NCBI RefSeq assembly: GCF_054482525.1
Contig: NZ_JBTHVG010000004.1
DNA from: a plasmid
Reading direction: 5' to 3' (one strand)
Length of the DNA stretch: 64,000 nt
Each line of letters begins with the position of its first letter. Position 1 is the first letter of the stretch. Position numbers and translations under genes: made by a program. This document shows, piece by piece, positions 13,565 through 43,407 of the stretch. The notes beneath the pieces are model-generated. The model was not told the DNA's origin. It was given only the letters and a program-made list of their open reading frames with translations, and did no database searches.

Positions 13565-13586
13565 GTTCTCATCTCCCTTTTCTATT

Positions 13587-13602
13587 GCTGTATGCATATA
13601 CA
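13587..13602 (-). promoter_or_regulatory. LexA box (SOS operator) for impCAB
   Basis: ctgtatgcatatacag = CTGT-N8-ACAG, about 25 bp upstream of impC start. Confidence 0.6.
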
Positions 13603-13957
13603 GTATTCTAATAACTGAATCCACACACAGTCAAATGTCATTATTGTGACTAAAAAACGCTCAATTCTCTGAGGGTGTGGCGGTATGCCTGCTGTGGACT
13701 GCTGTGTCCAGCTTATCCACAGCATTTTGCGCACGGTTCTGTGAATAAAATACCTGGTTACCCAGGCCGTGCCGGCACGTTAACCGGGCTGCATCCGATG
13801 CAAGTGTGTCGCTGTCGCCGGCCTCCTCACCCGGTCACGTTTCGTCGTTCCTCCTCCACGCGCTGCGGCTTCGGGGCCGCACCTGCATTCGTATGCGGTC
13901 GCCCGGTTACAGGTGCGGCACGGCCTGATGGAGGCCGCATGTGAGAGGAGAATTCCC

Positions 13958-39140: not shown

Positions 39141-39310
39141 ATAAAAGGATTGTTGCAGATACGAAAGTCGTTAGAATAGCCGCGGACGCTTGAGGCTGTA
39201 TGCCGAAAGCGTTTTGTGGATGGTATACAGCAGAAAGCCCCCTGGAGATTTTTTATCAATCAACCAGGGGCTCTACTGTAATGCCTAGACAACATTATAG
39301 TAGCCTGATA
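39141..39310 (+). repeat. Truncated upstream copy of the pnd (hok/sok-type) leader, direct repeat of 40562-40731
   Basis: about 170 bp roughly 93 percent identical to the leader in front of pndA; contains the mok-frame start atgccgaaagcg but diverges just before the pndA SD. Confidence 0.6.
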
Positions 39311-39353
39311 ATTTAGATATGTGTACATCCTACCGGAAAAGATACTTTTCAGG

Positions 39354-40445
39354 TCATTTATCAATGGGTGTTATTACCACCGGTAGTTTGTTTACGTCTT
39401 CTAAATTAACTGGTACCGGAGGTAACCATATTAATCTAGGTTTACGCTCATGGGCTAGTTCTGGTTTCTTACTTCCTGTCCAGTATGTATGCCAGTGTCC
39501 CCGGCGTATATGAGGACGTTTGCTACCTATTGTTGTCCGCTCTTTCCCTGTGGGTTCTGCTTGGCGATATTGCCGTATGGCTTGCCCCATTCGAATACCA
39601 ACGTCCCACTCCCGAATGTTTTGTGCTGGTAGTTCATGGTGAGTGTGAACATGCTTTTTGTGCTTTTCTGACCGTTTAAATTGATTTTTTTCTTTTATAT
39701 CATTGATCTGTGAACAGATATAAAGCACCATTGATATCTGTGCGTTAAGAAGATTAAACTCCCTGTCTCTGAAATCTTTGAGCTTTTCGTTAACTGTTAC
39801 GACGACTTCACCATCGATACACTCCATCTTTCTGGAGTCAAGAAGTCCTTCACGAGAGTCCTTTATTCTGATGATATTATTGACGACGTCAACATCCTTT
39901 TCTTTTAGCCCTGTAGTTCCTTGACTTTGTTTCAGATCATCAATAATGAAAAGCCGGATAATATTTCCATTATTGTCCAAAAATGGATAAAAGAAAAATC
40001 CATGTATCGGATAGGACGTAGGAAGTATAGTATGCAGATTTTCGGCTGAAACATAGATACTCCATGAAGGGAGTTCCTTGAGGATCTGTGCAGGAATGTT
40101 ATCAACATAGGTGTTAGCCACATCACTGATGATGTCCTCGCTTAGGCGATAAATTTTCTTTGTATAGCGCCAGTATATAAAACACAAAATACTGTGTGGT
40201 GACGATAATTCGTTTCCATGAAATAAAGATTCTAGTTTAGAAGCCAGTTCTTCATTTTTTTGTTGGCTCTGGAGACGACTCATTAGTATGCGTTCTTCAT
40301 CTTTTCTGTCGATAAATAATAATGGATTGTCGCTGCGTTTTTTATTTCGGCATGCAAAGATTTGCTCTTCAAGCCCAGGGATTGTGTTGATGACTTTTTT
40401 TATCTTTTTCAGGAAAATAGGTTGTTTTAACTGCGACATTTCCAT
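39354..40445 (-). CDS. Hypothetical protein, AT-rich cargo; C-terminal motif shared with 4713..5765 product
   Basis: 363 aa; SD aggagatggaaATG; C-terminal TGKERTTIGSKRPHIRRGHWHTYW...RLIWLPPVPVN. Confidence 0.6.
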   Translation of the reverse strand: MEMSQLKQPIFLKKIKKVINTIPGLEEQIFACRNKKRSDNPLLFIDRKDEERILMSRLQSQQKNEELASKLESLFHGNELSSPHSILCFIYWRYTKKIYRLSEDIISDVANTYVDNIPAQILKELPSWSIYVSAENLHTILPTSYPIHGFFFYPFLDNNGNIIRLFIIDDLKQSQGTTGLKEKDVDVVNNIIRIKDSREGLLDSRKMECIDGEVVVTVNEKLKDFRDREFNLLNAQISMVLYICSQINDIKEKNQFKRSEKHKKHVHTHHELPAQNIREWDVGIRMGQAIRQYRQAEPTGKERTTIGSKRPHIRRGHWHTYWTGSKKPELAHERKPRLIWLPPVPVNLEDVNKLPVVITPIDK

Positions 40446-40561: not shown

Positions 40562-40731
40562 ATAAAAGGATTGTTACAGATACGAAAGTCGTTAGAATAG
40601 CTGCGGGCGCTTGAGGCTGTATGCCGAAAGCGTTTTGTGGACGGTATACAGCAGAAAGCCCCTGGAGATTTTTTTATCAATCAACCAAGGGCTCTACTGT
40701 AATGCCTCAACAACATTATAGTAGCCCGATA
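40562..40731 (+). repeat. pnd leader copy 2 (functional copy upstream of pndA)
   Basis: direct repeat of 39141-39310. Confidence 0.6.
40570..40640 (-). ncRNA. pndB: Putative PndB (Sok-like) antisense RNA region
   Basis: inferred only from hok/sok organisation (antisense to leader around the mok start); no promoter mapped. Confidence 0.25.
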
Positions 40732-40905
40732 ACCGCCGGAAGGCAATGGAGGGGCTATGATGCCACAGCGAACGTTTTTAATGATGTTAATCGTCGTCTG
40801 TGTGACGATTCTGTGTTTTGTCTGGATGGTGAGGGATTCGCTTTGCGGACTCCGGCTCCAGCAGGGAAACACAGTGCTTGTGGCAACGTTAGCCTACGAA
40901 GTTAA
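40621..40905 (+). CDS. pndC: PndC (Mok-like overlapping leader frame)
   Basis: 94 aa frame overlapping pndA in +1 register, as in mok/hok. Confidence 0.45.
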   Translation: MPKAFCGRYTAESPWRFFYQSTKGSTVMPQQHYSSPITAGRQWRGYDATANVFNDVNRRLCDDSVFCLDGEGFALRTPAPAGKHSACGNVSLRS

Positions 40906-40912
40906 ACGTTAA
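40757..40912 (+). CDS. pndA: PndA, Hok-family type I toxin
   Basis: manual translation MMPQRTFLMMLIVVCVTILCFVWMVRDSLCGLRLQQGNTVLVATLAYEVKR; SD ggagg; not in ORF track because under 60 aa. Confidence 0.85.
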   Translation: MMPQRTFLMMLIVVCVTILCFVWMVRDSLCGLRLQQGNTVLVATLAYEVKR

Positions 40913-41235: not shown

Positions 41236-41388
41236 CGGATTTTCTCTCTGTATTTATGGGTAGTTATCGAACTGAATGTGCCAGTTTTTTCAGGAGACGG
41301 CAAAGTTGAGATGATTGGTTCTGATTCAAAGCATGAGTTTCCCCGGTGTGACGGGCATGTCGGGCGGATTTTGAGAAACAACAGATGT

Positions 41389-41419
41389 AAAAAAACCGAC
41401 TGGTGAGGTCGGTTTTTTT
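41389..41419. terminator. Bidirectional terminator-like hairpin
   Basis: aaaaaaaccgac-tggtgag-gtcggttttttt. Confidence 0.5.
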
Positions 41420-41723
41420 ACTGTTCCGTTACAGAGTGGGTGGCTCTGGTCGGAAAAGAACTGTCTATAACTGACTTGTAGATAGTACGTCTGGAATTAT
41501 ATTTCTGCAAGTACTGGATAAGTGTATACTCGGCATGTCAGCTCTGAGGCATGTTCTGTCCGACATATTGTTCAGCGGGAAGAACAGGTTGCAAGTCCTG
41601 GCCAAAACATCAGGTGGTGCTGGTTTTGGTGCTCTGGTCGGAGAAGAACTGTCTATAACTGACACTATAGAAACCGTTGTGACAGGCAGTGTAAGAGCGA
41701 ACAACGGGGTTCTTTCTCCAGTG

Positions 41724-41831
41724 ATGGAGAAGCGGATGATTAATCTGTTAATCATCGTTCTCAGGGCAGTAGTTGCCGTTGCAAACGCGCTGATTGCTGT
41801 TCTGGAACTGATCCGGGAACTTATCGACTGA
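41724..41831 (+). CDS. Small hydrophobic peptide, TisB-like type I toxin candidate
   Basis: MEKRMINLLIIVLRAVVAVANALIAVLELIRELID; GGAG 7 nt upstream of the second ATG (41736); long repeat-containing 5' region. Confidence 0.3.
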   Translation: MEKRMINLLIIVLRAVVAVANALIAVLELIRELID

Positions 41832-41895
41832 TAAGCCTGGAAACGTAACTAAGGGCAGGGAGTTACCGCTTCCTGCCCTTTAACAAAAAGAGATC

Positions 41896-42072
41896 TCACG
41901 TTAAAAATTTGTACCCTTCTTTAACTTCCAGTGCCTGCTCCTTTGACTCAAACATCAGTCTTGTTTTCCCGGGAACACCCCATGAAATGTATTCAACATC
42001 TATCCACCATTTTCCATATTCTTCATATGGCTCGGATATTACTTTTTTGACAAAGGCGTCTACCAGATTCAT
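41896..42072 (-). CDS. Hypothetical small protein
   Basis: 58 aa from internal Met MNLVDAFVKK.. with SD aggaaaaaacaATG. Confidence 0.35.
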   Translation of the reverse strand: MNLVDAFVKKVISEPYEEYGKWWIDVEYISWGVPGKTRLMFESKEQALEVKEGYKFLT

Positions 42073-42463
42073 TGTTTTTTCCTTTTTGTGTTGAAAATAA
42101 TTAATGCCAGAGCACAGCGAAAATAATGAATGCGCTGGCTGTGATAATTGCGATTTTCTCCCATATGATATTTTTCTCATGGGGGTTTCTACGGAGATTA
42201 TTTCTTCGCATTGAGATACCGGTATTCATGTTTTATCTTGGATTTTTGTTTTGTTGTCTGTCTGGCAGGCTGTTCTGCGCCCGTTTGTGACAAGGTTAGC
42301 TTATGGGGTTAAATGGTCACGGACATCATGCGGACGGTTCCCTGTCACATGCCATCTGGTTTTTTCATTCAAATTGAGAGATATTGCTAAGTTGAGTCGC
42401 TTGCGATAGTGGACTCCTGTTTGCAAGTGAGTGCCATTGTTTATTTCATGAAGAGGATTGATT

Positions 42464-42744: not shown

Positions 42745-43407
42745 TTAAAATACTTCGGCTACAGGTATGCCTGCAATCTGCTCCCACTCCTTACGCTTTT
42801 CCTGAATCAGGCGAGGAAAGTCGACAGGGTAATCATATCCTCGACTTGCCATCGCGTGCATGGTGTTTGATGCGGTTTCTGGATGAGTACACCATGATGG
42901 AATAGGAACCATTGGCAGGTTGATGTATTTCGTATGAATTTCCAGTGTTTTGTCGTCTGTTACAGTACGAGTGAAATTATGAATGTCAAAACCGATAACA
43001 TCCATAATGTTGCCTGGATAAATACGGACATACAACATTGTGCCATTTTTAAGGTCAATACCGAAATAAGCTCCCTGAGTTAAAGATAATCCTTCATACC
43101 CCTTCTCTGGAGAGTAGAAGCCTGACTCTTTTATTGTTTGTACAACTTTTCTTATTTTTTCTCTCCTTGTTTTTGCACGTGAGTACATCCATATGCCTGG
43201 CGCAAGTAATAAGAACCAACTACCAAAAGTGACAACATAATCTTCGACCTTATTTCCGAAATAACGATCAGAACATAGCATTTCGGTAAAGCCTAATGCG
43301 CAGAACAGAAAAAAAGGTATTCCAAGAAAGAAATAAGCTTTTCTTAATACATAATAAAATAGCCACCAGGTTGGAAATCTGTCTGTTGTTTCTTTTTTAG
43401 CTTTCAT
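42745..43407 (-). CDS. excA: Entry exclusion protein ExcA (membrane)
   Basis: 220 aa; N-terminal TM segments; position between pnd and traY. Confidence 0.7.

Follow-up and report, generated by a model that had tools for sequence, protein, structure and literature searches.

Judging from sequence homology and from analogy with characterized relatives, positions 41387-41885 of the window (the whole 64,000-nucleotide stretch of plasmid DNA that was analysed) very probably hold all parts of an agrB-dqlB module, a type I toxin-antitoxin system on a conjugative plasmid of the IncI1 type, with a role in addiction through a dinQ-like mechanism. The module is an ordinary member of a named, annotated and experimentally validated family, and as such it is already known. 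What the present interpretation adds is, most likely, that two direct repeats in this region are the antitoxin RNA and its target, that the toxin starts at the 31-aa position, that LexA control is absent, and that the module is a second addiction system beside pnd. The features assigned to the module are listed by position.

41387-41475, minus strand: putative AgrB-like antitoxin sRNA gene of ~89 nt, from the RF02891 match and alignment to K-12 agrB and agrA
41387-41421, strand not specified: predicted intrinsic terminator of the sRNA, a perfect 14-bp hairpin (inverted repeat I1, 100% complementary) between a run of A and a run of T
41443-41475, minus strand: repeat copy 1, template of the predicted 5' antisense segment of the sRNA
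41482-41510, minus strand: predicted sRNA promoter, with -35 TTGCAG at 41510-41505, a 17-nt spacer and -10 TACTAT at 41487-41482
41525-41537, plus strand: dqlB -10 box (TATACT, 41525-41530) and putative transcription start G41537
41537-41885, plus strand: predicted dqlB primary mRNA of ~349 nt, made up of a 199-nt 5' UTR, the 31-codon ORF, and a 3' UTR with terminator
41537-41588, plus strand: 5' segment, counterpart of the first 44 nt removed from the dinQ mRNA, with a processing site that is inferred only
41553-41564, plus strand: element 1 (GUUCUGUCCGAC), the partner of the target region when the full-length RNA is folded
41631-41663, plus strand: repeat copy 2, the predicted sRNA target in the dqlB 5' UTR, which includes element 2 (41637-41649)
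41709-41719, plus strand: element 3 (GUUCUUUCUCC)
41714-41720 with 41725-41731, plus strand: hairpin sequestering the Shine-Dalgarno (SD) sequence, carrying GGAG at 41726-41729 and seen in every fold
41736-41831, plus strand: dqlB CDS of 31 aa (MINLLIIVLRAVVAVANALIAVLELIRELID), from the NF041473 match, the RefSeq CDS and the conserved start
41851-41880, plus strand: 3' stem-loop, a presumed intrinsic terminator (inverted repeat I2, 12 bp, followed by TTTAAC)

Identity of the toxin gene and its surroundings

The original prediction had pointed to a small hydrophobic ORF of 31-35 codons, and such an ORF is present, running from ATG 41724 or ATG 41736 to 41831. The first ATG opens a frame of 35 aa (MEKRMINLLIIVLRAVVAVANALIAVLELIRELID) that ends at the stop codon TGA (41829-41831). 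The in-frame ATG 41736 gives the 31-aa form, dqlB, with the same stop. The DqlB peptide is a single hydrophobic helix with a GRAVY of 1.90. Its score with the NCBIfam model NF041473 (DinQ-like type I toxin DqlB) is 67.2 bits, where the cutoff is 35 (E = 8e-19), and the alignment takes in all 31 positions of the model and residues 5-35 of the 35-aa form. With the DinQ equivalog NF041472, the peptide scores 19.6 bits, below the cutoff of 30. The peptide had been assigned to the TisB class, but no match to the TisB family was found for it in NCBIfam or Pfam. The NCBIfam scan to E = 1 returned only the DqlB and DinQ models, and the Pfam scan of the 31-aa peptide gave nothing significant, its single hit being DUF6486 with E = 0.58. 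PADLOC, run on the peptide and three neighbouring ORFs, gave nothing convincing. By its homology, this ORF is dqlB, a DinQ-like toxin gene that already has a name.

The gene had also been taken to be unannotated. However, the RefSeq name for an identical sequence in many plasmids is "dqlB: DinQ-like type I toxin DqlB". In the IncI1 plasmid pEK204, the RefSeq CDS WP_000609148.1 lies at the coordinates corresponding to 41736-41831, and hundreds of identical IncI-type plasmids carry the RefSeq dqlB annotation. A megablast search of PLSDB with the 521-bp sequence returned 1656 records, of which 450 have at least 99% identity, and a more sensitive PLSDB search returned at least 5000 records.

On the minus strand only, the Rfam AgrB model RF02891 matches positions 41387-41474 with its full length (model positions 1-84; 53.7 bits, gathering score 40). 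Together with the match to NF041473, an independent curated model, this bears out the proposal of a second type I toxin beside pnd. The pnd locus itself, which had been named as the nearby type I system, is of the hok/sok type and lies intact upstream, with an Rfam sok match of 132.8 bits at 40605-40762 and a 51-aa Hok/Gef ORF at 40757-40912. The Rfam sok model matches only 39184-39341 and 40605-40762, and not the dqlB region. Downstream, excA is located at 42745-43407 on the minus strand. The flanking arrangement of pnd and excA is the same as in the annotated plasmid pEK204.

The toxin transcript and the question of LexA control

The module was compared with dinQ-agrAB of K-12 and with 16 stretches from diverged plasmids, which covered IncK2/Z, IncI-gamma/K1, pESI, IncX1, IncX3, IncP, IncL, IncM, IncN, IncFIA and an Erwinia plasmid. 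From the sRNA terminator through the toxin terminator, the order of parts in the window follows that of K-12 agrA/agrB-dinQ collinearly, and the predicted dqlB mRNA is collinear with the dinQ mRNA over its whole length. Both promoters and the dqlB terminator were assigned by this alignment with homologues and not by a generic scan. At its threshold, the generic promoter scan listed neither the sRNA promoter nor the dqlB promoter. A terminator-like site was returned on the minus strand, from 41421 to 41387, and the dqlB terminator was missed because its T run is short.

The -35 region of dqlB is poor (TTTCTG), which, like the absence of both promoters from the generic scan, speaks against the reading as a module. 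Among 15 aligned toxin loci, the TAT of the -10 box and the GT at +1 (41537-41538) are invariant. G41537 is aligned with the experimentally numbered +1 of K-12 dinQ; the dinQ numbering was checked against U16-C28, G88-A119, U167-U178 and A182-G187 of PMC5066626.

In K-12, the LexA operator of dinQ (TACTGTATGATTATCCAGTT) overlaps the -10 box. The homologous 20-mer of the window (AAGTGTATACTCGGCATGTC) contains neither CTG nor CAG, in agreement with the original prediction, in which no LexA box had been seen. Positions 41300-41900 were scanned for the CTG-N10-CAG motif and for the sites closest to the 20-nt consensus. Around the promoter (-45 to +25 of the start), CTG-N10-CAG is present in K-12 dinQ and was found neither in the window nor in 13 other dql loci. 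The sole CTG-N10-CAG in 41300-41900 is located at 41598-41613 in the transcribed leader, ~60 nt downstream of the putative start. It matches the consensus at 9/20 positions and lies inside a conserved RNA stem-loop (helix 4), in which 7 of 8 pairs are changed on both sides.

These sites bear on whether the module is a stress-response toxin like the chromosomal dinQ, induced by DNA damage via LexA, and not a constitutive addiction module. The homology to the SOS-regulated dinQ locus speaks for such control, and a weak SOS box has been predicted for dqlB of the IncI1 plasmid pTF2 (HI 11.64, -119 from the start; PMC12211044), roughly where the leader motif of the window lies. However, this motif is downstream of the start and belongs to a co-varying stem, and it is taken here to have arisen as a side effect of the RNA motif. 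The counterpart of the dinQ operator is degenerate, and the homologues act as addiction modules (PMC12365149, PMC12317039). SOS control is very unlikely and was rejected as the main reading on account of the degenerate operator site and the position of the sole motif in a leader RNA stem. Since the dinQ LexA operator is absent and close homologues are addiction modules, post-segregational killing is the most likely role.

The antitoxin RNA and its target

Two repeats of about 32 bp had been described as parts of one long toxin leader. The repeats are real; they are 33 nt long, occupy 41443-41475 and 41631-41663, are identical at 32 of 33 positions, and are separated by 188 nt from start to start. 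They form by far the longest repeat in 41300-41950, and no other segment in the 830 nt upstream matches the target, without gaps, at more than 17/33. The single leader did not stand. Copy 1 is situated upstream of the toxin promoter and inside the divergent sRNA gene, which places it outside the toxin leader. There is no overlap between the sRNA gene and the dqlB transcript. As read from these alignments, copy 1 supplies the antisense segment of a divergently encoded sRNA that acts in trans, and copy 2 is the mRNA target of this sRNA. The target ends 72 nt before ATG 41736; the corresponding distance is 74 nt in dinQ and stays within 68-77 nt throughout the 17 loci compared.

The 5' end of the sRNA (G41475/T41474) was placed by homology, with its start aligned with those of K-12 agrB and agrA. 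The predicted RNA begins with an antisense segment of ~33-37 nt, followed by an internal stem-loop and then the terminator hairpin. It folds at -28.8 kcal/mol (z = -6.4 relative to shuffles), with a 5' tail that is mostly open. No antisense promoter had been identified in the original prediction, but TTGCAG-17 nt-TACTAT is present on the minus strand at 41510-41482. Three parts of it are invariant columns in 16 aligned sRNA genes: TTG in the -35, TA..AT in the -10, and GT where the RNA begins (41475/41474). The hairpin at 41387-41421 would also stop read-through on the plus strand into the module.

In 11 of the 16 plasmid stretches, an AgrB-like gene scoring above the Rfam gathering score is found beside dqlB. 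The other five (IncP, two IncL/M, IncL/M-IncU and IncN) gave no Rfam AgrB match, and the sRNA gene is recognisable by the repeat and the alignment in four aligned stretches of these five. The pairing segment belongs to the more variable parts of the mRNA, yet each sRNA carries the sequence of its own target. The sRNA and the target co-vary across 14 divergent loci and E. coli dinQ. Duplex energies were used for this comparison because an ungapped identity matrix underestimates the cognate matches, which have 1-nt indels in the 5' part. Over 15 loci, cognate duplexes have a mean of -60.2 kcal/mol and non-cognate duplexes a mean of -35.9 kcal/mol, and most of the latter lie between -20 and -45 kcal/mol. 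The cognate sRNA is the strongest partner in 11/15 loci. For the window, the predicted sRNA/target duplex has ~36 bp and -66.2 kcal/mol, and the one position at which the repeats differ (A/G) is accommodated there as a G-U wobble.

The two sRNAs of K-12 served as calibrators, with -63.0 kcal/mol for agrB/dinQ and -46.4 kcal/mol for agrA/dinQ. K-12 agrA does not repress dinQ (PMC5066626). The cross-pairs are weaker than the agrA/dinQ calibrator (-27.5 kcal/mol for the window sRNA on dinQ and -33.3 kcal/mol for K-12 agrB on the window target), and cross-talk with the host dinQ locus is therefore not predicted. The IncL, IncM and IncN sRNAs are likewise predicted to pair with the window target at only -26 to -30 kcal/mol, compared with -66 kcal/mol for the cognate sRNA. 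Most non-cognate duplexes are no stronger than the non-repressing agrA/dinQ pair. It is quite possible, if short of probable, that, from one plasmid group to another, the AgrB/dqlB pairing segment has split into several specificity classes that are orthogonal to each other, as these calculated energies would suggest. We did not find such classes discussed in a non-systematic search of the literature.

Conservation and co-variation also bear on the state of the locus, which might be an inactive relic whose toxin or control has decayed and which is carried passively. Disrupted copies do occur elsewhere, such as a dqlB cut by an IS3 element (locus L008), and in another locus (L003) the nearest sRNA copy matches the target at only 27/33. 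The adjoining pnd could, moreover, make the module dispensable. In the window, however, the ORF, the SD sequence, both promoter motifs and both terminators are intact, and the 32/33 complementarity amounts to full pairing when the G-U pair is counted. Many plasmids of different hosts carry this sequence with 100% identity. The family shows co-variation as well as purifying selection; among ten distinct 31-codon alleles, pN/pS is 0.20, and the variable columns by codon position 1/2/3 number 10/4/19. Decay of the module is thus extremely unlikely, and an intact agrB-dqlB pair is the reading retained here.

mRNA switch, start codon and role of the module

A consensus structure of the toxin mRNA from +1 was predicted using RNAalifold and counted on the alignment of the toxin loci. 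In this structure, 96% of cells are paired, compared with 35-50% when the partners are slid by 1-3 columns. The number of pairs changed on both sides is 29, compared with 17.4 in shuffles (0/500). The supported helices are a stem-loop just 5' of the target, a stem 3' of the target, the SD hairpin, a start-codon hairpin and the terminator. Compensatory changes are found in alignment helix 8 (the SD hairpin), and five pairs are changed on both sides in alignment helix 14 (the 3' stem-loop).

All three mutually exclusive pairings of the dinQ model (1:2, 2:3 and 3:4) can be drawn for the window. The minimum free energy fold of the full-length RNA (41537-41885) contains 1:2 and 3:4, with the 1:2 duplex formed by 41553-41564 and 41637-41649 and a probability of SD pairing of 1.00. 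When ~50 nt are removed from the 5' end, this probability falls to ~0.90. In the truncated RNA, pairing 2:3 (41640-41649 with 41709-41719), which opens the SD sequence, lies only 0.9-1.2 kcal/mol above the minimum. In the same calculation, K-12 dinQ goes from 0.92 to 0.78. The predicted opening in the window, from 1.00 to 0.90, is modest and was counted against the preferred explanation. Blocking of the target, as by bound sRNA, returns the probability to 1.00. Across the loci, cognate 1:2 duplexes average -27.1 kcal/mol and non-cognate ones -20.2 kcal/mol (permutation p < 1e-4, inflated by related sequences), and cognate 2:3 pairings are also stronger than non-cognate ones (permutation p < 1e-4, likewise inflated by related sequences). 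Every folding step predicted by these calculations runs in the direction of the dinQ mechanism, with modest effect sizes.

The GGAG that had been noted before the second ATG is present at 41726-41729, with a spacer of 6 nt to ATG 41736. The Met at 41736 is kept in all loci compared and is aligned with the start of K-12 DinQ. In most homologues, ATG 41724 is replaced (LIKGKRM, LTEKRM, LWRKRM, VWSKRM), and upstream of the conserved Met the frame has stops 2-15 codons before it. Conservation of the frame in related plasmids had been proposed as a check of the ORF; the 31-codon frame is kept, and the extensions to 35 and 98 aa are not conserved. By these alignments, the conserved dqlB start is the second ATG, 41736, which gives 31 aa. 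The longest ORF of the frame in a mechanical call has 98 aa and starts at ATG 41535. It is hardly credible that the real product is this protein or the 35-aa form, with the hydrophobic segment as a mere C-terminal anchor: both upstream ATGs are in frame with no stop between them in the window, many Dql peptides are annotated with longer N-termini according to Kristiansen et al. (PMC5066626), and GenBank CP088824 has an 83-aa CDS in the dqlB frame (locus L003, 900-1151), but the NF041473 match is limited to the last 31 residues, ATG 41724 lies within the SD hairpin and overlaps the GGAG, and the 98-aa ORF was rejected because its ATG 41535 is upstream of the putative mRNA start G41537.

By analogy with dinQ and with the folds described above, the 31-aa toxin would be controlled as follows. 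The full-length dqlB mRNA would be inert, with element 1 bound to element 2 and the GGAG locked in the hairpin at 41714-41731. Removal of ~50 nt from the 5' end, as in dinQ, would free element 2. The freed element 2 would then pair with element 3, so that the SD sequence opens and DqlB may be translated from ATG 41736. DqlB would enter the inner membrane and kill or arrest the cell. In the presence of the AgrB-like sRNA, its 5' 33-37 nt would pair with 41631-41663 and the SD hairpin would stay closed. The resulting sRNA/mRNA duplex is long and could be cleaved by RNase III, as in related systems. For the window, the ends of the transcripts, their processing and the cleavage by RNase III are carried over from homologues, as are the toxicity and the addiction.

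The dql genes (dqlA and dqlB) were defined in 2016 on chromosomes and plasmids of Enterobacteriaceae, and their shared 5' UTR elements were described by Kristiansen et al. (PMC5066626). In 2025, DqlB of the IncL plasmid pOXA-48 was reported as a toxin that agrB neutralises in trans and that kills plasmid-losing cells; in the same study, dqlB was found in 67.4% of IncI1 plasmids (PMC12365149). The agrB-dqlB pair of the IncX3 plasmid pOXA-484 was described in 2025 as a stabilising TA system or addiction module (PMC12317039). In the literature on dinQ and IncI1, we found no experimental study of the IncI1 allele. DqlB was not detected in proteomics of the IncI1 plasmid pTF2 (PMC12211044). This lends no support to the module, but it is what one would expect of a repressed toxin.

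The window peptide is identical to the pOXA-48-type peptide at 25/31 positions and to an IncX3-type peptide at 26/31. The modules of these plasmids have the same architecture as that of the window, with a divergent AgrB-like sRNA, an SD hairpin and a 3' terminator. They also have the same complementarity of 33-35 nt to the 5' UTR, ~70 nt before the start, and the LexA box is absent from both the window module and these relatives. The antisense and target sequences differ, as do the backbone and the neighbours; the window module lies between pnd and excA.

The K-12 dinQ-agrAB locus follows the same four-element 5' UTR logic and has the same SD hairpin and start-codon position (PMC3567139, PMC5066626). 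The LELIR motif is common to the DqlB peptide and DinQ, and identity in the C-terminal half is 11/17. The peptide has 31 aa in the window and 27 aa in DinQ, and the pairing sequences differ. Unlike the K-12 locus, which has two sRNA genes, the window module has one sRNA gene, is plasmid-borne and has no LexA operator.

Similar logic is seen in tisB-istR-1. TisB is a small hydrophobic type I toxin of the inner membrane, and its divergent trans-acting sRNA binds the 5' UTR at a site some way before the SD sequence. The primary tisB transcript is inert and needs 5' processing. The window module resembles this system in the type of toxin, the divergent sRNA and the inert primary transcript, a likeness that draws on general knowledge of tisB. 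However, no sequence relationship was detected using NCBIfam and Pfam, and the window module has no LexA box.

The pnd locus (40605-40912) and, in all likelihood, agrB-dqlB are post-segregational killing systems of plasmids, each built on a small toxin of the membrane, a structured mRNA that is processed, and an antisense RNA. That of pnd is made in cis, overlaps the leader and acts through a translationally coupled leader ORF. In contrast, the AgrB-like sRNA of the window would act in trans via the duplicated 33-nt segment, from a gene that does not overlap the toxin gene. As pnd is already on the plasmid, the contribution of agrB-dqlB to stability could be redundant.

By analogy with its relatives, the module most likely serves in post-segregational killing and plasmid stabilisation alongside pnd. 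If the pairing segments do form orthogonal classes, the IncI1 module would be insulated from the host dinQ/agrB and from the compared IncL, IncM, IncN, IncX and IncP modules, and a co-resident plasmid would therefore be unable to disarm it. Since the segment is also complementary to elements 1 and 3 of its own mRNA, this would constitute a four-way co-evolving recognition code. As this case confirms, a small type I toxin overlooked in older annotations can be found again by reading the sequence alone. IncI1 resistance plasmids of the kind seen here would carry two adjacent RNA-controlled killer modules, pnd and agrB-dqlB, and plasmid-curing or anti-plasmid strategies would have to handle both.

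Invariant nucleotides in dqlB

Two short stretches of the dqlB transcript do not vary in the alignment of 15 toxin loci, which comprises the window, the other dql loci and K-12 dinQ.
41802-41815, dqlB coding region, CTGGAACTGATCCG
41839-41848, dqlB 3' UTR, GGAAACGTAA
Both are free of nucleotide changes in 15/15 loci. This invariance includes the third codon positions of CTGGAACTGATCCG and points to a constraint at the level of the RNA. Part of the invariant sequence forms the UCCG/CGGA helix of the consensus structure, which never varies.

LexA-box-like sites

The dqlB leader contains a CTG-N10-CAG motif (41598-41613), approximately 60 nt downstream of the inferred transcription start. The motif is contained in a stem-loop with compensatory changes. 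For dqlB of the IncI1 plasmid pTF2, a weak 'SOS box' has been predicted at roughly the position of this motif (PMC12211044). The best LexA-box-like sites of the whole window are found elsewhere.
13586-13605, LexA-box-like site, TGCTGTATGCATATACAGTA
13613-13632, LexA-box-like site, AACTGAATCCACACACAGTC
The first matches the LexA consensus at 17/20 positions, and the second has exactly the sequence given for pTF2 as its second impCAB site (PMC12211044). Together they probably make up the impCAB SOS operator.

Neighboring genes and the apparently duplicated pnd leader

The agrB-dqlB module is flanked by two small ORFs, both of which correspond to hypothetical proteins in the annotated IncI1 plasmid pEK204.
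40984-41235, minus strand, 83-aa ORF (WP_001291964.1)
41896-42180, minus strand, 94-aa ORF
The 83-aa protein is found again beside pnd in two IncI-gamma/K1 plasmids, and its ORF had no match in PADLOC. The 94-aa ORF gave only a marginal PADLOC match (PDC-S56, E 0.0068) and is arranged convergently with the dqlB terminator. The hok/sok-type pnd locus and its surroundings contain the following features.
39184-39341, plus strand, second match to the Rfam sok model (84.6 bits, over the full model)
39354-40445, minus strand, 363-aa ORF adjoining this match
40605-40912, intact pnd copy
No Hok ORF lies downstream of the second sok match, which appears to be a duplicated 5' portion of the pnd locus. 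Because the intact pnd copy is present at 40605-40912, the 363-aa gene is bracketed by pnd-leader repeats of approximately 158 bp. The pEK204 annotation has finQ at the corresponding place between trbA and pnd.

Multiple and disarmed modules on other plasmids

More than one dqlB/AgrB module or sRNA is present on some plasmids. Two AgrB-like genes occur on the IncK2/Z plasmid pA17EC0191-3 (positions 402-489 and 707-794 of its locus stretch, L003), the second with an antisense sequence of the IncI-gamma/K1 type; the nearest sRNA matches the plasmid's own target at only 27/33 positions. IncX1-type plasmids (locus stretches L009 and L017) contain a tandem pair of dqlB genes; one encodes 27 aa and the other 31 aa, and an AgrB-like gene accompanies each of them. 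In pLR-58-1_2, an IS3-family element has cut dqlB to 21 codons (positions 1055-1120 of locus stretch L008), and the AgrB-like gene is retained. This locus exemplifies a disarmed module.
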